Shown piece by piece: positions 1 through 13,927 of a DNA stretch of 51,990 bases (position 1 is its first letter; each line of letters begins with the position of its first letter). The position numbers were made by a program, and so were the translations under genes. The stretch comes from a candidate division WWE3 bacterium RIFOXYB1_FULL_43_24 (GTDB lineage Bacteria > Patescibacteriota > WWE3 > UBA101185 > UBA10185): the NCBI GenBank assembly GCA_001773135.1, contig MEVX01000008.1, positions 91,992 to 143,981 of the forward strand, in the 5' to 3' direction. Under the pieces are notes generated by a model. The model had not been told where the DNA came from. It did no database searches and saw only the letters and a program-made list of their open reading frames with translations.

Positions 1-2
1 AA

Positions 3-689
3 GACCAGAAGGGCTGGGTCGATCTATGCTATGCAGTCGGGGGCACCGTGGTTTATTCCAGAGATTACGATGACAGAAAAAATCTGTATAAAGCTCTGGA
101 AGATGCCGGAAAGGGTCCTTTTATTCTGTACTATCCCAGTGTAGAGAGAAAGGATAACGACGAGTGTTATTTGGACTGGCTGCTGGATCACATTAAATCC
201 AAATTTGATCCCGGCAGTATGACTGAAGAAGATACCAGGGGGATTGCAGTGTTCGACGATGTCACATCGTTGTTTATGGACAGAGACCTTGGGATCAAGT
301 TAGCAGACGAGGTTGTTACGGGGTGCAACGCTCACGGTGTGATGACACTGATAACTCTACAATCCGTAGAGGCTGTTAAAAACATCAACATCGGAGCGCA
401 CTCACAGTTAACGAGCATCATCAATGGATACTTTGCTTTTACTACTCCGGCATATGCTTCGTATGCTGAGTCGATCGGAATAAAACCGGTCACCGAGAAG
501 CTTAAAGAACTCCATGATGAGTTGGTAGACACTATCGGGCAACGTAGCTCCGGGCTTATGGGTACATGGATTCCGCCTGAGTGGAGGGGTGTTTGTACGA
601 TGATAACTAAGAATCGTCAGATATACCCCGCGAGAATTCTTGTACACGACAAAGCCATTGAGTTATTAAGCCGAAAAAGAACCCGATAG
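3..689 (+). CDS. C-terminal part of a VirB4/TraG-like (FtsK-HerA superfamily) transfer ATPase, 5'-truncated by the window edge
   Basis: The frame is open from nt 3, with no stop before the listed GTG at 48. IAVFDD is Walker-B-like and TLITLQS resembles the TQ motif of VirB4/TraG-type ATPases. A cell-wall hydrolase gene follows, as in conjugative modules. Family call is by eye only. Confidence 0.4.
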   Translation, partial: DQKGWVDLCYAVGGTVVYSRDYDDRKNLYKALEDAGKGPFILYYPSVERKDNDECYLDWLLDHIKSKFDPGSMTEEDTRGIAVFDDVTSLFMDRDLGIKLADEVVTGCNAHGVMTLITLQSVEAVKNINIGAHSQLTSIINGYFAFTTPAYASYAESIGIKPVTEKLKELHDELVDTIGQRSSGLMGTWIPPEWRGVCTMITKNRQIYPARILVHDKAIELLSRKRTR

Positions 690-5239: not shown

Positions 5240-6748
5240 CTAATTTTGTGTGGGAGCTATTTTCCAGATCCTAGTAATAGCCCTATTTATTTTCTGATAA
5301 GAATAGATAAAATATCCCAGGATTTCCGAGTAGTATAAGTATCCTTGCCCCGCCTTAATTTTTGAGAGAACTTTCAAAGGTACAAGCACTATGTTCGGGA
5401 TTTGAAATTTCACATCGTAAAATTTTATCTTCATCAGCCAATCAATAATGCCTTTTGGTAAAAGAGAGATAAGTACGAACAGAAGCATAAACGCCGAAGT
5501 ATTTATTTGGGCGTTTTTGTTGTCGTACCAAGGTACAAGATTAAGTTTGCTCAAATCGTGTTGTCCTGTGTTTATAGCGGGAACATCCGCTTCAGAAATT
5601 GAACCGTGCTTAATTGCTGTTTGTATGATGTCTGTTCCGGGAAGATACATTAAACCCCAGAAATTAATAATTGTAGGACGGCACTCATTATATAAATTGA
5701 CGGCTTCTATCAAATGTTCTTTAGTTTCAGCCGGTAGGTTGAAGATGTGGTCGAAAGAAAATTGAAGGCTGTATTTCCTGCATAATTCTGAAACCTTTAA
5801 AATTTGTTCATTGGTTTCGTGACGGTTAAGAAAAGTTTTTCTATAATTTTCGTTTGCGGATTGAACGCCGAGCTTAAACCAAGTGCATCCGCCCTCTTTA
5901 AGAATTTTTACTGTTTCTTCGTTTACAAGTCTCGGGTGGAAGAAACAAGCGAAAGGAACATTTACCTTTTCTTTATACAAATCCATAAGTTTGCGGAGTC
6001 TTTCTATGTCTATTGCCAGTACATCGTCAGCAAACTCTACACGCGGATAGTGGTATTTTGCTAAATTCATTTCCAGCTCTCCGATTACGTTTTCAGGACT
6101 ACGGTGTCTGAATCTTTTTTGTCCGAGGTATAGTTTTTGGTAAACGTTGTTTGAGCAGTATGTACATGCGAAAGGACAACCGCGGCTTCCTACGGCTGTA
6201 TAGGCCATATTTCTTTTAATTGGGTCAAGCGGAGAGTTGTAAAAAAGATCTTTGTCGGGGTATGGCAGAGCGTCTAAATCGGTTTCTAAAGGCGCGGTAG
6301 GATTTTTAACTATCCCGCCGTCTTTTCTATACCATAATGACCTCGTTTTTGTTATATCTCCGGCTTCGTGATTTTGTGCAAATTCTATGATAGTTTTGTC
6401 GGCTTCCCCAAGAAGTATCCCGTCAATAGCTTTCTCTTCCATTACCACGTCGGGCACAGAGTTAACATGAACACCTCCGAACAAAATGAAAAGCTCTGGA
6501 TAATTTTCTTTGATTAGTTTTGCTTTGGCCAAAGACCACGGGAATTGAAAAGAGAATGGTGAAAAACATGCAAAGTCAGGTTTATATTTTTCAATTTTCT
6601 TTATGATAGCTTGGTTTTCTGCTTGTAGGTTGGATCCTAGTGGAAAGAACGCAAGTTCCACGGAGTGTCCTACGCTTTTCAGTGCAGCAGAGATGTACTC
6701 AACGCCTATATTTTCGTTTTCGTGTTGTACGAATAAAAACTTCAGCAC
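5240..6748 (-). CDS. B12-binding-domain radical SAM protein
   Basis: N-terminal Rossmann-like B12-binding region, then GSRGCPFACTYCSN (CxxxCxxC). GTG start. Confidence 0.75.
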   Translation of the reverse strand: MLKFLFVQHENENIGVEYISAALKSVGHSVELAFFPLGSNLQAENQAIIKKIEKYKPDFACFSPFSFQFPWSLAKAKLIKENYPELFILFGGVHVNSVPDVVMEEKAIDGILLGEADKTIIEFAQNHEAGDITKTRSLWYRKDGGIVKNPTAPLETDLDALPYPDKDLFYNSPLDPIKRNMAYTAVGSRGCPFACTYCSNNVYQKLYLGQKRFRHRSPENVIGELEMNLAKYHYPRVEFADDVLAIDIERLRKLMDLYKEKVNVPFACFFHPRLVNEETVKILKEGGCTWFKLGVQSANENYRKTFLNRHETNEQILKVSELCRKYSLQFSFDHIFNLPAETKEHLIEAVNLYNECRPTIINFWGLMYLPGTDIIQTAIKHGSISEADVPAINTGQHDLSKLNLVPWYDNKNAQINTSAFMLLFVLISLLPKGIIDWLMKIKFYDVKFQIPNIVLVPLKVLSKIKAGQGYLYYSEILGYFIYSYQKINRAITRIWKIAPTQN

Positions 6749-7185: not shown

Positions 7186-8607
7186 ATGGCCATACTAACC
7201 ACTATTTATCTATACATGTACACCTTTTTTGCTGCGCTTTTACCCGGGGCAAGCTATAACGAGGGTATGTTGGGCCAGCCCCAAACATTTTTTCCAAGCC
7301 AGATTGTGCAGCAAACGGATAAGGCCATAAGCTCTCTTCTTTACAGAGGGTTGTTTAAATATGATATTTACGGGGCAACAGTACCAGATTTAGCTGAAAC
7401 GTGGCAAGTTTCGGACGACGGTCTTGTTTACACTATTAAGCTAAAAGACAACCAATACTGGACCAACGGTAAAAAGATAAATTCTGATGACTTAATATAC
7501 ACGTCCTTCAAGGTTACGGATCTCTCTGGAGTTGCGACAGATAAAGTTGATGATTTGACCGTAAGATACACTCTTCCTAACGAGTACTCCCCGTTCTTAA
7601 GTTTACTTACCGTAGGTATTATGCCTATGAACGCCGAAGAAAATAATACTCCTTTGTCTCCTGTAACGAGCGGTGACTTTAGGATAGCCCGGGTAGAAAA
7701 ATCAGGTAAATATATAAGACAGATAACTTTGGTGTCCCCAAATAATAAATACGATATTCAAAAAATAAGCTTCAGATATTATTCGAACGAAGATGAGATT
7801 GTGACTGCGGCTAAGTTGGGGGAAATCAATGGCTACCTCTTGTCTGAAAAGAAATCCCCCGAAAATTTTTATAACTATGAATATCCGGTTCAGGGAATTT
7901 ACTATGCTTTATTCTTTAATATTAGAAACGAAAAGCTTGCGGACGTTGATTTTAGGCAGAAGCTGGAAAAGGTAATACCTTTGGAAAGTTTTACAGCCGG
8001 AAAAGGTATTAGAGTTCAGGGACCGATTAGCCGAAGTATTTTTACGGATTTGGAGCTCGAATTTGACCGTTACGACGAGCTTTTTTCTGAGGACTTGGGC
8101 GACGCACGTCTGACAATAAGAGTTCCGGATATTGAAACTCATGTAATTTTGGCAAAACAAATCGCGTCAGTTTGGAGAGAGAAGTTAGATATAGAAGTGA
8201 AAGTAGAGCCTATCGCTTCCAACGATATCGTTCCGCGTATTATAGAACCACGCGACTTTGAGGTTTTATTGTTCGGGCAGGAGGTTGGGCGAGACCCGGA
8301 TAGATATGTTTTATGGCATTCTGCGCAGAAAAACCCCCCGGGGTTGAACTTTTCCGGGTTTGACCAGGTTAGAGCCGACAGGGCTTTAGAAGAAGGTAGA
8401 AAAGAGCTGGACAACGAGAAAAGGATTATTCACTATAATGAGTTTCAGAAGGTTATTGTAGAGCAAGTTCCCGCAGTCTTTTTGTACCACCCGTTTACCA
8501 ACTTTTACGTCTCCAAGTACATAGAGGGTGTGGGGGAGAAATATACCTTTACTTACGCGGACAGATTCCTGGACTTTGAGAACTGGAGGTATTTGAGGAC
8601 GAATTAG
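7186..8607 (+). CDS. Family-5 (peptide/nickel type) extracellular solute-binding protein
   Basis: N-terminal hydrophobic anchor. Overall resemblance to OppA/DppA-type SBPs (WQVSDDGLVYTIKLKDNQYWTNGKKINSDD). Confidence 0.55.
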   Translation: MAILTTIYLYMYTFFAALLPGASYNEGMLGQPQTFFPSQIVQQTDKAISSLLYRGLFKYDIYGATVPDLAETWQVSDDGLVYTIKLKDNQYWTNGKKINSDDLIYTSFKVTDLSGVATDKVDDLTVRYTLPNEYSPFLSLLTVGIMPMNAEENNTPLSPVTSGDFRIARVEKSGKYIRQITLVSPNNKYDIQKISFRYYSNEDEIVTAAKLGEINGYLLSEKKSPENFYNYEYPVQGIYYALFFNIRNEKLADVDFRQKLEKVIPLESFTAGKGIRVQGPISRSIFTDLELEFDRYDELFSEDLGDARLTIRVPDIETHVILAKQIASVWREKLDIEVKVEPIASNDIVPRIIEPRDFEVLLFGQEVGRDPDRYVLWHSAQKNPPGLNFSGFDQVRADRALEEGRKELDNEKRIIHYNEFQKVIVEQVPAVFLYHPFTNFYVSKYIEGVGEKYTFTYADRFLDFENWRYLRTN

Positions 8608-8659: not shown

Positions 8660-8737
8660 GGTGGCTGTAGCTCAGTTGGTTAGAGCGCTGCTCTGTGGAA
8701 GCGGAGGTCGTGGGTTCGAGCCCCATCAGCCACCCCA
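8660..8737 (+). tRNA. tRNA-His (anticodon GTG) with encoded G-1
   Basis: G(-1) then GTGGCTG acceptor, CTGCT-CTGTGGA-AGCGG anticodon arm, GTGGGTTCGAGCCCCAT T-arm, CAGCCAC, discriminator C, CCA. Confidence 0.9.
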
Positions 8738-8937: not shown

Positions 8938-10239
8938 ATGTACACACGATTAAGTGCACCATTGGATGTGCAATGGGAGCTTACGCCTTGGTGCACATAT
9001 AACTGTGTGCACTGTTACAACTATTGGCGTAGGGACGAACGACCAATGCGTGTTCTTACAGAAGATCAGCTGGTAGTACGTAGAAAGACTGCCAAAGAGC
9101 TTCTTGAGAACAAGGTTTTTCATGTGACACTGACTGGAGGTGAGCCGCTTGGCGTAATTGAGCAGGTAATGCCTGAACTTCGCCAACTCGCATCAGCAGG
9201 TATACAAATGAGCATCAACACTAACCTAGCCCTGATGACCACGGAGATGGGTAAATTGTTGAAAGAGTTGGGTATTCGTTCAATTCTTACATCCTTGATG
9301 TCAGCAGACGAAATACTCAACGATGAGATCGCTCAACAAAGAGGTGCCTTTAGGCGGACTATAGAGGGTATCAAGGTAGCGGTATCAATGGGACTCCGAG
9401 TGTCGGTGAATATGGTTGTGTCTCAGAAAAACTTTGACACCATCTACGATACTGGAAAACTTGCATACTCACTTGGTGCCAAAGCATTCTGTGCAACCAA
9501 GGTGTCAAAACCCTCAAACTGCGAAGACTTCACAGGCTTTCCTCTTAGCAGAGAGCAGCTTGGGAGTATGTTCCATGAGCTTATCCGGATAAGGAAAGCA
9601 TTTGGAATTGAAGTCGCCTCACTGGAGCACTATCCTGCTTGTGTATTCCCAAATACCGAAACAAGAACAATGTTTGGTAATAGAAATTGTTCGGCCGCGA
9701 AAACAAGCTGTACGATAGGGTTTGATGGGAACATACGGCCATGCTCGCACGCTCCTATGTCCTACGGTAATGTAGCAGAACAAGGATTAAGCGTTGCCTG
9801 GATAGGTATGGACGCATGGCGAGATGATAGCCTTGTACCATCTGTATGTAAGCTTACGTGCGGTGAGTATCCTGGCAAGTGCGGTGGCGGTTGCAGAATT
9901 GAGTCTCTTAATGTTCACCAGGGTGTAGGTGGCAGCGACCCTTATAGCCTTGAGGCAGCGCCAGCAGCAAAGCGAGCAGTAGCAAAGCTCAAGCTCTTAG
10001 ATCCCGCCGTGATAGTACAACTACAACCAAAGGTACGATTTCGTAAAGAGAATTTTGGGTTCATAGCCTACAGAAGTTCAACCAACTGGGTAGCTATGGA
10101 TTCAACGCTTTATGGTATAGTCGTACCGTCCAAACCAGTATCGGTCACTGATGTGGCGACCGCATATCAATCTTCTGAAGATGATGCCCTGGAAACGCTG
10201 AGCATTTTGTCAGCAAAAGGCATTGTCCAAATAATCTGA
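8938..10239 (+). CDS. Radical SAM / SPASM-domain peptide maturase with a C-terminal PqqD-like (RRE-like) tail
   Basis: CTYNCVHC (CxxxCxxC) at residues 19-26. Auxiliary-cluster Cys motifs CSAAKTSC..RPC and CKLTCGEYPGKCGGGC. The ~90-aa tail (KVRFRKENFGFIAY...) resembles PqqD family. RBS GGAGG. Confidence 0.8.
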   Translation: MYTRLSAPLDVQWELTPWCTYNCVHCYNYWRRDERPMRVLTEDQLVVRRKTAKELLENKVFHVTLTGGEPLGVIEQVMPELRQLASAGIQMSINTNLALMTTEMGKLLKELGIRSILTSLMSADEILNDEIAQQRGAFRRTIEGIKVAVSMGLRVSVNMVVSQKNFDTIYDTGKLAYSLGAKAFCATKVSKPSNCEDFTGFPLSREQLGSMFHELIRIRKAFGIEVASLEHYPACVFPNTETRTMFGNRNCSAAKTSCTIGFDGNIRPCSHAPMSYGNVAEQGLSVAWIGMDAWRDDSLVPSVCKLTCGEYPGKCGGGCRIESLNVHQGVGGSDPYSLEAAPAAKRAVAKLKLLDPAVIVQLQPKVRFRKENFGFIAYRSSTNWVAMDSTLYGIVVPSKPVSVTDVATAYQSSEDDALETLSILSAKGIVQII

Positions 10240-10260
10240 AAGCGAAAGGAGGTGAGAGTA

Positions 10261-10410
10261 ATGGCCGTTGGTATTCTGAGGTTGCAAACCACGCGTGTCT
10301 GCGAAGACAACTGTGATGGCGAAGACATTGATGGCGTTCCGTGCGTTGATGTTGAAGACCCGCCTTGCTACGAAATGTGTCAAGACAGCGATGATGGTCC
10401 GAACGATTAA
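10261..10410 (+). CDS. 49-aa Cys/Asp-rich putative RiPP precursor peptide A (not in the ORF track)
   Basis: ATG lies 7 nt after AAGGAGGTGA and 21 nt after the rSAM stop. Hand translation: MAVGILRLQTTRVCEDNCDGEDIDGVPCVDVEDPPCYEMCQDSDDGPND (5 Cys, 14 Asp/Glu). A terminator follows. Confidence 0.7.
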   Translation: MAVGILRLQTTRVCEDNCDGEDIDGVPCVDVEDPPCYEMCQDSDDGPND

Positions 10411-10465
10411 CCGCCTCGCCCGCGCCTACTCCTAACCACAGTTTGGGTTGCGCAACCTAACCTGT

Positions 10466-10516
10466 CCCTCTGATAGTTTGTTTACAAAACTAGCTGTCAG
10501 AGGGATACTTTTTTTA
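10466..10516 (+). terminator. Rho-independent terminator after peptide A
   Basis: CCCTCTGA ... TCAGAGGG stem with inner TAGTTT/AAACTA pairing, then a T-run. Confidence 0.6.
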
Positions 10517-10517
10517 T

Positions 10518-11150
10518 ATGATATTTAAGATACAGACATTTGAAGACCCTATTTTAGAAAAACTGTATAGCCAAGCATTAGAAGAGTTAAAAGAATTTTT
10601 CCAATTTAGATGGGAAAAAAACACTCCTAAGCTAATAGTTATTGAAGATAGAGATACTATAAACGCTGTATATGGGAAACAAACAGAGAGCTGGATGGTT
10701 GCATGGGCTGAAGATACAAGGAACATCTTTATACTTAGCAGAGAAAATTACGAAAAATATAGTTCGCACAAGTATTCAGAAGATGAATTTTACAAACTAA
10801 TAAAACACGAACTCTCCCATATGTTTTACAAATTGATTACTTTTACAGATAAACCAAGATGGTTGAATGAGGGAATAAGTACATACATATCAGGTCAATT
10901 AGATAACACCAAACCAATAGAGGAATTTAAGGTGTTTCTGAACTACTTTGATAAAACAGATGCTGAACTGTACAAAGAATCGGGGTATCTTGTCAAATTA
11001 TTGTTAGATAAATTCGGTAAAGATAAGCTATCTAAATTCACTAAATCTTTGAAGGGTGTCAAAGATCCAGAAACAACTGCAAAAGTATTTCAGGAAGCTT
11101 TTGGCTTAAATCTATCATACGAAAGTATAAACTACCTGCTTACAAAATAA
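10518..11150 (+). CDS. HExxH zinc metallopeptidase (peptidase MA / gluzincin-like), paralog 1
   Basis: HELSHMFY ... WLNEGISTYISGQ (HExxH plus a downstream EG). Confidence 0.6.
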   Translation: MIFKIQTFEDPILEKLYSQALEELKEFFQFRWEKNTPKLIVIEDRDTINAVYGKQTESWMVAWAEDTRNIFILSRENYEKYSSHKYSEDEFYKLIKHELSHMFYKLITFTDKPRWLNEGISTYISGQLDNTKPIEEFKVFLNYFDKTDAELYKESGYLVKLLLDKFGKDKLSKFTKSLKGVKDPETTAKVFQEAFGLNLSYESINYLLTK

Positions 11151-11374: not shown

Positions 11375-12007
11375 ATGACTTTACTTATGAGTAAAATTTT
11401 TAGAATAAAAATAAACGAACAAAAAGAATTAGAATCTGTATACGCTCAATCACTAGACAAATTAAATAACTTTTTTGATATTAGATGGGAACAGAACAAA
11501 CCAAAAGTTTATATAGTAAGTGACAGAGAAACTGCTGAATCTTTGAGGGGTAAACAAACTCCAGATTGGATTGTCGGCTGGAACGGGGACGGGGGGGCAT
11601 TTGTTTTGGATAAAGATATATTTTTGAACACAAAAAATACTAATCGAGACAATGACGATTACAAAATGCTAATAATGCACGAGTTAGCGCATTTGTACTT
11701 CAAAATCGTAACAGGTGGTAAAACACAACCTAATTGGTTGTGGGAAGGAACATCAATACTTGCATCAGGCCAGGCCGAAAAGTGGAATAAACCAGCAGAG
11801 TTTAGAAGCTTTCTGGACAACAAAGACGTTTATTCAGAGGCAGGACATGCTCTACTACTATTGACGCGACAGTTTGGCAAGGAAAAGTTCATACAAATGC
11901 TCAAAAACTACAAAACTTACGATGGAGATTTTTCTGGTCTATTTAAAAATACTTACGATATGGAACTAACATATGCTACGTTTGAAGGTTTAATAAAACA
12001 TCAGTAA
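11375..12007 (+). CDS. HExxH zinc metallopeptidase (peptidase MA / gluzincin-like), paralog 2
   Basis: HELAHLYF ... WLWEGTSILASGQ. Alignable by eye with 10518-11150 over the full length. The true start may be the second Met (11387, MSKIFRIK). Confidence 0.6.
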   Translation: MTLLMSKIFRIKINEQKELESVYAQSLDKLNNFFDIRWEQNKPKVYIVSDRETAESLRGKQTPDWIVGWNGDGGAFVLDKDIFLNTKNTNRDNDDYKMLIMHELAHLYFKIVTGGKTQPNWLWEGTSILASGQAEKWNKPAEFRSFLDNKDVYSEAGHALLLLTRQFGKEKFIQMLKNYKTYDGDFSGLFKNTYDMELTYATFEGLIKHQ

Positions 12008-12072: not shown

Positions 12073-12198
12073 CTAAGAAAACTGAGGACAGTCTCCAGGA
12101 GGTTGGCAATCACAATCGCAATCGCTGGTTGCGTCTGAATCGTGAGAGCAATTATCAGACCCAGTTACGTGTATGCCCAAATCTTCAAGATTAACCAT
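12073..12198 (-). CDS. 41-aa Cys/Asp-rich putative RiPP precursor peptide B (not in the ORF track)
   Basis: On the minus strand, GAAAGGAGAATTGAC precedes the ATG. Hand translation: MVNLEDLGIHVTGSDNCSHDSDATSDCDCDCQPPGDCPQFS. The leader motif LGIHV..S is shared with peptide C. Confidence 0.65.
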   Translation of the reverse strand: MVNLEDLGIHVTGSDNCSHDSDATSDCDCDCQPPGDCPQFS

Positions 12199-12325: not shown

Positions 12326-13678
12326 ATGGCAGACTTGACTTATCAGGGGCTGTTATTGGACAAGGCAGGTCACACTAAGTTAAACCTTTCAAATGGCGAA
12401 GCTGTGATCTATAGTCCTTACGGCTCCGGCAAAGCGTTTGTTCTATCAGGTGTTGCATTAAAGGTGTACAAGCTTCTTGAAAGCGGGTTAACTGTTGAGG
12501 AAATAATCAATACAGCGCAATCGCCGGAATGGGAAGAAACCGTGCAGGCAGTGATTGCGTACTTCACAGATCGGGGACTTTTTGCAGACAAGAGAAAAAC
12601 GAAAACTTTCTCTGCAGCCAAAAAGCCGAAGTCAATTGCACTTTGGATCCATGTTACGGATACCTGTAATCTGCGTTGCGATTATTGCTACGTTCACAAG
12701 GGTAAACGGCGCTTATCCAAAGAAGCCTGTGATGTTATTGTCAGCGCATTAAAGGCGGATACGGAAACCTTTCAGATAAAGGAGGTTGAGCTGAAGTTTG
12801 CAGGAGGCGAACCGCTCGTTGATATAGAGATTGTTTCCTATTTCATGGACCAAGCAAGAGCGGCGTTGCTACCACTTGGTGTAAAAATCCATTTGGCGAT
12901 AATCACCAACGGTACCTTAGTGACTGATGAAAAAGCGAAGTTTCTCAAGAACGAAGCGTTCTCGGTCATGGTATCCCTGGACGGACTTGGAGATTTCAAC
13001 AACGCCAGGAAATATGCAGATGGACGAACTAGTGTGCATCAGGTGCTGGAAGGTATTGAATGCCTGCTTAACGCTGGTGTTAGGCCTACAATACTCACAA
13101 CGGTATCGGATACGAATGTTGAGGGTTTGTGGGATCTAATGATCTATGTGAGAGAGAAGGGTCTAACGCTAAGCCTAAGCCCATCCAGAGACTACGAGCA
13201 AGAATTGGGTTTGAAGATGAATGTAGAGCATATTTCCAATGAAATGGTGGTGTTTCTACACAAAGTATGTCTTTTACCCGATAGCGACCTGCCGCGACTG
13301 AGTTTCAATGGAATTCAATTTACCGGCGGTAGAACTCATATCTGTGGGGGTGGCTCAAATTACTTTGCAGTGGATCCCGATGCAGGCGTCTGCTTTTGTC
13401 AGATGACTGTAGATAAGCCAATGGGTTTGGTCACAGACAAAGACAGCATATTGAGTTTCGCCACTAGTCAAGATACGATCCTGGAAGGAGGTGAGTGCTT
13501 AACCTGTATTTGGAAGAATGTCTGTTGTGGAGGATGTGCAGTTTTAGCGATGAACGCAGGTACTTTTGGGAAACCATCAGTAATGTGCGATTTAATGAAA
13601 CGCATCCTACCGTCAATCCTTCTATATGAAGGCCGAAAGATCCGCAGATTGAAAGAGAGGAAAACATGCCTACCTTGA
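12326..13678 (+). CDS. Radical SAM / SPASM-domain peptide maturase with an N-terminal PqqD-like (RRE-like) domain
   Basis: CNLRCDYC (CxxxCxxC). C-terminal Cys clusters CGGGSNYF..CFC and CLTCIWKNVCCGGC. The ~100-aa N-terminal extension (VIYSPYGSGKAFVLSGVALKVYKLLESGLTVEEII) resembles PqqD family. RBS AAGGAGAG. Confidence 0.8.
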   Translation: MADLTYQGLLLDKAGHTKLNLSNGEAVIYSPYGSGKAFVLSGVALKVYKLLESGLTVEEIINTAQSPEWEETVQAVIAYFTDRGLFADKRKTKTFSAAKKPKSIALWIHVTDTCNLRCDYCYVHKGKRRLSKEACDVIVSALKADTETFQIKEVELKFAGGEPLVDIEIVSYFMDQARAALLPLGVKIHLAIITNGTLVTDEKAKFLKNEAFSVMVSLDGLGDFNNARKYADGRTSVHQVLEGIECLLNAGVRPTILTTVSDTNVEGLWDLMIYVREKGLTLSLSPSRDYEQELGLKMNVEHISNEMVVFLHKVCLLPDSDLPRLSFNGIQFTGGRTHICGGGSNYFAVDPDAGVCFCQMTVDKPMGLVTDKDSILSFATSQDTILEGGECLTCIWKNVCCGGCAVLAMNAGTFGKPSVMCDLMKRILPSILLYEGRKIRRLKERKTCLP

Positions 13679-13854
13679 GCGCTCTTGGTATTCATGTAGC
13701 AGATTCTCAAAGCCGAGCTGATTGCGACTGCGAGACAGACTGCGCCTCACAATGTAGCCAACAGTGTGACCGAGACTGTGACTGCGAATGTGGAGGCGAC
13801 TGCTACGATTGTGATTGTGAATGCCAGTGCCAATGCTCTGATTGCAGGAACTAA
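13666..13854 (+). CDS. 62-aa putative RiPP precursor peptide C with 15 Cys
   Basis: ATG lies 5 nt after GAGAGG and overlaps the rSAM-2 stop by 13 nt. Sequence: MPTLSALGIHVADSQSRADCDCETDCASQCSQQCDRDCDCECGGDCYDCDCECQCQCSDCRN. Confidence 0.75.
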   Translation: MPTLSALGIHVADSQSRADCDCETDCASQCSQQCDRDCDCECGGDCYDCDCECQCQCSDCRN

Positions 13855-13874
13855 AACGAGCAATGGCAATCAAC

Positions 13875-13927
13875 AAAGACCTGTTTAAAGGTGAACTTAC
13901 TCCTTATAGACAGGTCTTTAATTTTTG
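13875..13927 (+). terminator. Hairpin terminator after peptide C
   Basis: AAAGACCTG ... CAGGTCTTT with inner AAGG/CCTT pairing, then AATTTTTG. Confidence 0.5.

Follow-up and report, generated by a model that had tools for sequence, protein, structure and literature searches.

The stretch of DNA analysed here, a 51,990-nt window from the candidate division WWE3 bacterium RIFOXYB1_FULL_43_24, carries a gene, pepA3, that overlaps the 3′ end of a gene for a radical S-adenosylmethionine (SAM) enzyme, rSAM-2, and encodes a small peptide with a short leader and a cysteine-rich core (Table 1). The peptide contains 15 Cys, 11 Asp, 3 Glu and 6 Gln residues; cysteine makes up 34% of the core, CxC motifs included, and successive cysteines lie 2, 3 or 4 residues apart. 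A preliminary description of this sequence had reported the 62-residue translation with its 15 cysteines, the GAGAGG ribosome-binding site and a 13-nt overlap with rSAM-2, whose TGA stop codon occupies 13676-13678, and all three were recovered exactly as reported. Its further claim, that the motif is spelled in mixed codons and is no clean tandem repeat at the DNA level, was borne out by the codon counts (TGC 9, TGT 6; GAC 6, GAT 5) and by Tandem Repeats Finder, which returned a single weak array (12 nt × 2.3, 13765-13792, score 35).

The cysteine density of pepA3 stands far outside the background of the sequence. The runner-up among all stop-free segments of the 52-kb window reached 6 cysteines per 44-aa window, the highest count in 200 shuffled versions of the window was 9 per 44 aa, and shuffling the bases of the pepA3 open reading frame (ORF) 20,000 times never yielded an open frame with at least 15 cysteines; a chance origin of the cysteine content is excluded. 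Downstream, a hairpin followed by a U-tract folded at −20.9 kcal/mol (z = −4.5), a stability reached by none of 200 shuffles. A terminator scan had missed this hairpin, the loop of which is above the scanner's limit, and folding detected it; the terminator likely closes the operon directly after pepA3. A promoter scan gave matches not above the shuffled expectation.

Table 1 Features of the pepA3 locus, with pepA3 and rSAM-2 listed first. Along the window the order is tRNA-His, rSAM-1, pepA1, MA1, MA2, pepA2 (minus strand), rSAM-2, pepA3, terminator.
Feature	Position	Strand	Details
pepA3, predicted precursor peptide gene	13666..13854	+	62 aa + stop; MPTLSALGIHVADSQSRADCDCETDCASQCSQQCDRDCDCECGGDCYDCDCECQCQCSDCRN
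pepA3 leader	residues ~1-18		motif M-x-x-L-x-x-L-G-I-H-V
pepA3 core	residues 19-62		15 [D/E/Q]-Cys units
Shine-Dalgarno-like GAGAGG	13655..13660	+	5 nt before the pepA3 ATG, within the rSAM-2 3′ end
Likely intrinsic terminator	13875..13926	+	hairpin 13875-13919, then UUUAAUUUUU (U-tract); 20 nt past the pepA3 stop
rSAM-2, predicted maturase	12326..13678	+	450 aa
rSAM-2 N-terminal RRE-like β3-α3 domain	residues ~17-82		AlphaFold2 model
rSAM-2 radical-SAM motif CX3CX2C	C114, C118, C121
rSAM-2 SPASM domain	C340, C358, C391, C394, C400, C404, C421		7 invariant Cys
MA2, candidate leader peptidase	11375..12007	+	210 aa; HExxH (Peptidase_MA-like)
pepA2, predicted precursor of pepA3 type	12073..12198	-	41 aa from ATG: MVNLEDLGIHVTGSDNCSHDSDATSDCDCDCQPPGDCPQFS; AAGGAG Shine-Dalgarno; divergent from rSAM-2
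tRNA-His	8661-8737
rSAM-1, radical-SAM/SPASM, family other than that of rSAM-2	8938..10239	+	433 aa
pepA1, predicted module 1 precursor	10261..10410	+	49 aa from ATG: MAVGILRLQTTRVCEDNCDGEDIDGVPCVDVEDPPCYEMCQDSDDGPND; AAGGAGGTG Shine-Dalgarno upstream
MA1, candidate module 1 leader peptidase	10518..11150	+	210 aa; HExxH (Peptidase_MA_2-like)

Relatives of rSAM-2 were drawn from species-representative genomes, metagenomes and an exact-protein look-up, and the fetched loci are numbered with the prefix L. A small ORF on the same strand overlaps or abuts the rSAM-2 orthologue in about 14-15 lineages of the candidate phyla radiation (CPR), comprising WWE3, Saccharibacteria and other Patescibacteria, with enzyme identities of 35-91%, and is present in all lineages whose enzyme is at least 35% identical and whose contig reaches far enough. 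Such a Cys- and acid-rich ORF was found at L001, L002, L003, L004, L015, L018, L022, L023, L026, L090, L091, L092 and L093. In 13 of 14 lineages the precursor ORF opens 1-44 nt ahead of the enzyme gene's stop, and in the remaining one 85 nt beyond it; the most common form is an ATGA overlap with AGGAGG, GAGAGG or AAGGAG in front of it. The leader motif MxxLxxLGI is common to 14 precursors, with M1 and G8 invariant and I9 conserved in at least 90%. The proposed link between peptide and enzyme, first drawn from the overlap and ribosome-binding site in this one genome, thus recurs across about 14 lineages together with the leader, and the ORF and its cysteine register are conserved in relatives, as the preliminary description would have it.

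Comparison of pepA3 with its counterparts at L002, L015 and L018, whose enzymes are 65-67% identical to rSAM-2, gave a pN of 0.06-0.10 and a pS of 0.44-0.93 (proportions of nonsynonymous and synonymous differences), corresponding to a dN/dS ratio of ~0.04-0.06 with synonymous sites saturated. All 14 aligned cysteine columns were invariant while TGT and TGC interchanged, which, together with the low dN/dS, indicates selection on the protein in this frame rather than slippage or the shadow of another frame, and agrees with the earlier claim that the cysteine pattern is held at the protein level. An origin by slippage or tandem repetition is ruled out by the Tandem Repeats Finder result, by the selection and by the invariant cysteine columns. 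We conclude that pepA3 is a real gene under strong purifying selection.

The opposite view, that the ORF is no gene but a frame open by chance or one that shadows another frame or strand, such as the minus-strand ORF at 13670..13876, in DNA of unusual composition at the rSAM-2 3′ end, draws on the databases and on the other frames of the same stretch, which also hold long ORFs. A word-indexed search of 5.8 billion proteins with pepA3 returned no match, not even itself, and an exhaustive phmmer search of 1.84 billion representatives returned two weak matches only, both long repeat proteins, of which one proved unrelated on inspection and the other covered 17 residues of a 1453-aa protein, leaving no true relative. 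The gene calls explain this absence: at L091:1517-1738 and L092:6353-6514 the public calls (297 aa and 90 aa) run in the wrong frame over the cysteine-rich core and the true precursors are uncalled, so that a family missed or mis-framed by callers is absent from the protein databases. Moreover, the start codon, Shine-Dalgarno sequence, leader and stop codon are kept across lineages spanning the full range of enzyme identity, synonymous change is saturated at a low dN/dS in this frame, and the cores diverge completely while their [Asp/Glu/Gln]-Cys rule persists. The no-gene view is refuted for practical purposes, and we give it almost no credence.

Relatives of pepA3 differ most in their cores, which vary widely among lineages but are all Cys-rich and acidic. 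Peptides at L002, L015 and L018 are near-identical to pepA3, whereas L001 has a core of 17 cysteines that includes CRDCRDCKDCKDCDDCGDCIQC despite an 88% identical enzyme. L090 carries a near-perfect (Glu/Gln-Cys)n run, ECQCECQCECQCECQCECQCQCDC; the cores at L092 and L093 include ECVQQCTECDCDCIPG, those at L022 and L026 DCPSDCDNPADYDCNSDDCVDC and that at L003 DCEDCTGYKHDCDCDEDC, and the saccharibacterial core at L004 reads ECDECECCDSAGQCQNECQC. Throughout this diversity the residue preceding cysteine is constrained. In pepA3 it is Asp (9), Glu (2) or Gln (4) at all 15 cysteines, and one of these three follows the cysteine at 9 of 15; the corresponding counts before and after cysteine are 17/17 and 2/17 at L001, 12/12 and 7/12 at L003, and 7/7 and 1/7 at both L022 and L026. 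Across 11 family members, every cysteine has one of these three before it, at permutation p values from <5e-5 to 0.03: with the longer cores the observed count was attained in 0-2 of 20,000 permutations (p ≤ 1e-4), and for the shorter ones (pepA2, L004 and L023) p was 0.004-0.03. The conserved unit is therefore an [Asp/Glu/Gln]-Cys dipeptide with spacers of 0-3 residues rather than C-x-C. The cysteines are periodic, as the preliminary description stated, but its C-x-C wording is better replaced by [Asp/Glu/Gln]-Cys units, since only 9 of the 15 cysteines precede such a residue. Gln freely replaces Asp and Glu ahead of Cys, and with 18 Asp, Glu or Gln residues for 15 cysteines in the pepA3 core, every cysteine lies beside one.

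The partner enzyme matched the Pfam Radical_SAM family (1e-18) and shares 99% identity with a protein encoded by candidate division WWE3 bacterium GW2011_GWA1_42_12, a CPR/Patescibacteria genome; its radical-SAM cysteines and seven SPASM cysteines were invariant in 16 homologues. Its best NCBIfam match was the PapB ranthipeptide maturase (NF047865) at 119.2 bits, which falls below the membership cut-off of 340, as does the 92.4 bits with the SCIFF maturase (TIGR03974) below its cut-off of 425. Further matches were to the nif11-peptide maturase (114 bits, cut-off 519), CefB (101, 600), DynA (92, 450), QhpD (82, 453) and two anSME models (82 and 70 bits, cut-offs 349 and 484); sactisynthase models matched weakly (StsB 63 bits, cut-off 625), and the AlbA model gave no match in the NCBIfam search. 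A profile of the rSAM-2 family found CteB (PDB 5WGG) as its best solved relative, with E 9e-33 over the full length including the RiPP recognition element (RRE, where RiPP denotes a peptide synthesized ribosomally and modified post-translationally) at ~21% identity, the seven SPASM cysteines and the N-terminal region both aligning. An AlphaFold2 model of rSAM-2 (predicted local distance difference test score 84, predicted template modelling (TM) score 0.85) displayed an N-terminal β3-α3 domain with RRE topology, and a Foldseek search with this model ranked CteB first over the full length, N-terminal domain included (E 2e-21, TM 0.72), followed by TigE, ChlB and anSME, with TM scores of 0.63-0.70 for TigE and anSME. 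CteB forms thioethers, TigE cyclopropylglycine and anSME formylglycine. At the level of generic class, the radical-SAM core with its SPASM domain, the modelled RRE paired with a conserved leader, and the adjacency of enzyme and peptide genes point to an RRE-dependent radical-SAM/SPASM RiPP system.

Synteny, the leader motif and the RRE-like domain lead us to infer that pepA3 is the substrate of rSAM-2, and we regard this assignment as highly probable. In the scheme we propose, the RRE-like domain of the translationally coupled enzyme would bind the MxxLxxLGIHV leader, rSAM-2 would turn over repeatedly, modifying the 15 [Asp/Glu/Gln]-Cys units in the core, and the cytoplasmic HExxH peptidase MA2 would then remove the leader. 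The modification would most likely be a thioether from each cysteine sulfur to a carbon of Asp, Glu or Gln, as in ranthipeptides, with the methylene beside the side-chain carbonyl as the probable acceptor, as with PapB, QhpD and NxxcB. Taken as a whole, this scheme of a leader bound by the RRE, a core bridged by thioethers and a leader removed by MA2 is in our judgement probable, if less secure than the substrate assignment within it. The modification chemistry, the role of the peptidase and the biological function of the product are likewise inferred.

A candidate leader peptidase accompanies the enzyme in many lineages. MA2 orthologues at 48-56% identity adjoin the rSAM-2 orthologues in L015, L018, L020 and L021; a 209-aa HELAH protein, recognised by eye, takes the MA2 position in L092, as does a 205-aa gene product with a faint Peptidase_MA_2 match in L093, and more distant copies occur in L004 and L022. 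As read from the sequence, the MA2-type peptidases have no obvious signal peptide. Two further conserved proteins stand near the module in other lineages: a ~275-aa protein that replaces or accompanies the peptidase (L001:7646-8467, L002:4845-5696(-), L003:5451-6269, L022:2259-3077 and L026:2816-3631), which matched no Pfam family and is absent from the window, and a 204-aa protein of unknown type at L090 and L091. Either may serve as an alternative component for tailoring, immunity or peptidase activity. The SBP_bac_5 protein encoded at 7186..8607 was rejected as a member of the cluster, having no counterpart in any fetched locus.

With respect to the chemistry, thioether formation is the choice we favour, at somewhat short of even confidence. 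It is favoured because the nearest families and structure, PapB, QhpD and CteB, make thioethers, and because cysteine donors and Asp, Glu or Gln acceptors stand in a 1:1 ratio. PapB and QhpD form their C-S bonds at Asp Cβ and Glu Cγ, and NxxcB at Asn Cβ; Asp, Glu and Gln all have a CH2 at this position, beside their side-chain carbonyl, and this common methylene would allow Gln to replace Asp or Glu. PapB is reported to accept Cys-Xn-Asp/Glu substrates with n = 0-6 (PMC9413430), a tolerance that makes an adjacent donor and acceptor feasible.

Alternatively, pepA3 may be the RiPP precursor of rSAM-2 yet undergo another reaction, such as attachment of sulfur to an α-carbon as in sactipeptides, formylglycine formation, C-C cross-linking, cyclopropanation or epimerisation. 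The presence of anSME and TigE among the structural neighbours is compatible with such an outcome, as are the sub-threshold scores of rSAM-2 against every characterised family and the cores of distant relatives, which place Ala, Arg, Leu or Asn beside Cys (DCACQENGDCAC, DCDCRCLCECKC, CNCDCN). However, the closest full-length relatives by sequence and structure, PapB and CteB, are thioether formers, and the seven-Cys SPASM pattern aligns with that of CteB, an enzyme that binds the substrate cysteine at an auxiliary cluster. In addition, the anSME motif C-x-P/A-x-R is absent from the pepA3 core as read from its translation, and a strict 1:1 pairing of Cys with Asp, Glu or Gln is what a donor-acceptor cross-link predicts. 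We consider a different chemistry unlikely, though worth keeping in view.

Several observations nevertheless weigh against the proposed thioether-forming scheme. First, the acceptor in known ranthipeptides is C-terminal to the cysteine, whereas the conserved partner in the pepA3 family is N-terminal and adjacent, and runs such as C-R-D-C-R-D-C can be explained just as well if Cys(i) pairs with residue i+2. Second, the scores of rSAM-2 fall far short of the curated cut-offs for all NCBIfam maturase families, and since the chemistries of its structural neighbours differ, the fold specifies an RRE-dependent radical-SAM/SPASM peptide maturase without fixing the reaction. Third, accessory genes vary among lineages: L001 and L002 lack the peptidase and carry the ~275-aa protein in its place, and no conserved exporter was found near the module among the fetched lineages. 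Finally, a 34-nt deletion in the metagenome contig L020 (L020:2388-2555) removes the leader and leaves the intact and otherwise perfectly conserved core out of frame with the retained ATG, reflecting either recent inactivation to a pseudogene or an assembly error; this contig is the only relative found with the kind of frameshift or stop that the preliminary description had named as grounds for rejecting the peptide.

The cysteine content also invites a simpler view, that pepA3 is a metallothionein- or phytochelatin-like chelator whose free thiols, perhaps with its carboxylates, bind soft metals or Fe-S fragments, rSAM-2 being minor or unrelated. Its CxC motifs and 34% Cys core suit such a role, the lack of a conserved exporter is compatible with an intracellular one, and (Glu/Gln-Cys)n runs, such as that of L090, mimic the α-linked "synthetic phytochelatins" EC8-EC20, (Glu-Cys)n peptides reported to bind cadmium (PMC4292183). 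By contrast, pepA3 matched nothing in Pfam or NCBIfam (E ≤ 0.01), metallothionein families included, and the leader, the strict coupling to an RRE-bearing radical-SAM/SPASM enzyme and the co-occurring peptidase are RiPP hallmarks that a simple chelator would not need. The free replacement of Asp and Glu by Gln is also easier to reconcile with an acceptor centred on carbon than with a metal ligand. Plain chelation thus appears quite improbable to us. The two ideas are not exclusive, as the product of rSAM-2 could still bind metal after modification.

Among known systems, the PapB and QhpD ranthipeptides offer the closest likeness, combining a radical-SAM/SPASM maturase with a core of repeated 1:1 pairs of Cys and Asp/Glu: freyrasin, the PapB product, contains six Cys-X3-Asp thioethers, and QhpD installs Cys-to-Asp/Glu cross-links in QhpC. 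The pepA3 family differs from PapB substrates in its adjacent N-terminal partner ([D/E/Q]-C as opposed to C-X3-D), in the frequent use of Gln, in its greater density (15-17 units in 44-64 residues), in its short LxxLGI-type leader and in its restriction so far to CPR/Patescibacteria. The SCIFF system resembles it in the full-length match of rSAM-2 to CteB, including the RRE and seven-Cys SPASM domain, and in a short precursor, the Cys-x3-Cys stretch DCASQCSQQCDRDC of pepA3 being reminiscent of SCIFF cores; pepA3 differs in having 15 cysteines as opposed to 6 and in following the [Asp/Glu/Gln]-Cys rule, and no curated precursor model matched it. CefB ("Cys-every-fifth"), CcpM/Clo7bot, the CXXX-repeat maturase and TIGR04463 share the arrangement of a radical-SAM/SPASM enzyme beside a short peptide with periodic cysteines and matched rSAM-2 partially (63-101 bits, cut-offs 350-600), but pepA3 departs from them in its spacing rule, acidic partner and taxon. 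Metallothioneins and (Glu-Cys)n analogues share with pepA3 and its relatives a very high Cys fraction with CxC motifs and (Glu/Gln-Cys)n runs. True phytochelatins are γ-linked and made by phytochelatin synthase, unlike pepA3, which is ribosomal and α-linked, has a conserved leader, is always coupled to a radical-SAM gene and in many lineages lies alongside a peptidase. Taking these comparisons together, the pepA3 system resembles ranthipeptide and SCIFF systems in how it works, yet it belongs to no curated family; maturase and precursor both fail the cut-offs.

Consistent with this placement, neither pepA3 nor the other two small peptides of the region, pepA1 and pepA2, matched any family in Pfam or NCBIfam at E ≤ 0.01, and in literature on ranthipeptides, SPASM proteins, cysteine-rich peptides and Patescibacteria, CPR or WWE3 we found no account of the precursor family. 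The family is unannotated and uncharacterised, outside the cut-offs of every curated family, and [Asp/Glu/Gln]-Cys-repeat precursors are so far almost wholly patescibacterial; one distant relative of rSAM-2 comes from a Chloroflexota genome (L008). CPR/Patescibacteria, with their tiny genomes, are usually reported to have hardly any biosynthetic gene clusters or none at all. A long-read study recorded zero such clusters in its Patescibacteria genomes (PMC11613949).

Besides pepA3, the window encodes a second peptide of the same type, pepA2, whose leader MVNLEDLGIHV shares the LxxLGIHV of pepA3. In its homologue in the RAAC2_WWE3_1 lineage (L002, L016, L017 and L019) a TAA stands between leader and core. 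Stop-codon recoding of the L002 copy was considered and rejected, the TAA being identical in four near-identical contigs and a pseudogene the simpler account.

The genes from 8938 to 11150 form a second, separate RiPP-like module. The rSAM-1 family is much larger than that of rSAM-2: 718 proteins fell within E ≤ 1e-20, most of them unnamed or carrying a Patescibacteria label. Four of the fetched lineages (L085-L088) each have a small Cys-rich ORF after the rSAM-1 homologue, with a leader of the form x-A/P-V/A-G-L/I-x-x-L and cores that include SCDCDELYGPGQDPPCDQMCQDSDDGPTDNQ, DCFVCDCDCHCNEKCDCYCD and SSCDCDCHDCDDCVECDSCDCDCIDGD, and in L085 and L086 an MA1-like HExxH protein of 208-222 aa comes after the peptide. 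The Cys/Asp-rich pepA1, with its leader MAVGILRL, fits this family. It breaks the rule seen in pepA3, the residues before its cysteines being V, N, P, P and M; in the rSAM-1 module Asp, Glu or Gln stands after Cys, not before. A constant pairing of rSAM-1 with rSAM-2 was not upheld among the rSAM-2 relatives, although an rSAM-1-type leader lies near the rSAM-2-type locus of L023. In L087, a further radical-SAM gene (L087:5503-6837(-), 444 aa) with its own 64-aa peptide (L087:5225-5419(-), which includes SSNDCSCDDHCNDCNDGNCYDCACDNDGDCRSEW) is located beside the rSAM-1 homologue and its peptide, so paired modules recur outside the lineage of the window.

There is also a bolder proposal, in which the pepA3 family would represent a RiPP class seen almost only in CPR bacteria and missed by gene callers and databases, each cysteine being cross-linked to the preceding Asp, Glu or Gln to give up to 15-17 small sulfur rings arranged as a ladder. 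The acceptor would then be N-terminal with n = 0, a topology undescribed for sacti- or ranthipeptides, and the two enzyme families, as paralogues, would follow mirror-image rules, Cys then Asp/Glu/Gln for the rSAM-1 type and Asp/Glu/Gln then Cys for the rSAM-2 type. In organisms whose genomes are minimal, the product may act as a metal or redox-active ligand of very high density. We regard this joint proposal as speculative and, taken with all its parts, improbable. A single 5-kb stretch here holds two radical-SAM peptide-modification modules and three predicted precursors. Should the strict [Asp/Glu/Gln]-Cys rule be confirmed as a cross-link, it would amount to a new topology or a natural ribosomal analogue of phytochelatins, and would provide a handle on what episymbiotic bacteria secrete or sequester.

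More distant relatives of rSAM-2, at 25-30% identity, adjoin CxC-repeat peptides with other partner residues (L006:5267-5925, L028:351-548, L035:3745-3948, L041:2666-3160 and L040:1861-2430). Their cores include DCDCNCDCNTIVSF in three tandem copies, GDCAC repeats, CQCQCDCAC, DCDCRCLCECKCDCDCRCLC and DYDCSVCSDC repeats, and some form the C-terminus of proteins of 150-190 aa.

In the surroundings of the cluster, a B12-binding radical-SAM protein of 502 aa (5240..6748, minus strand) is encoded ~2 kb upstream, separated from it by a tRNA-Glu and the SBP_bac_5 gene. In many lineages tRNA genes are no more than a few hundred bases away from the module, as in the window (8661-8737) and at L001:5726-5809, L002:8118-8194, L004:5640-5714, L092:6713-6891 and L085:3164-3238. 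Together with the differing flanking protein genes in close relatives, they hint that the module moves between tRNA-adjacent sites.

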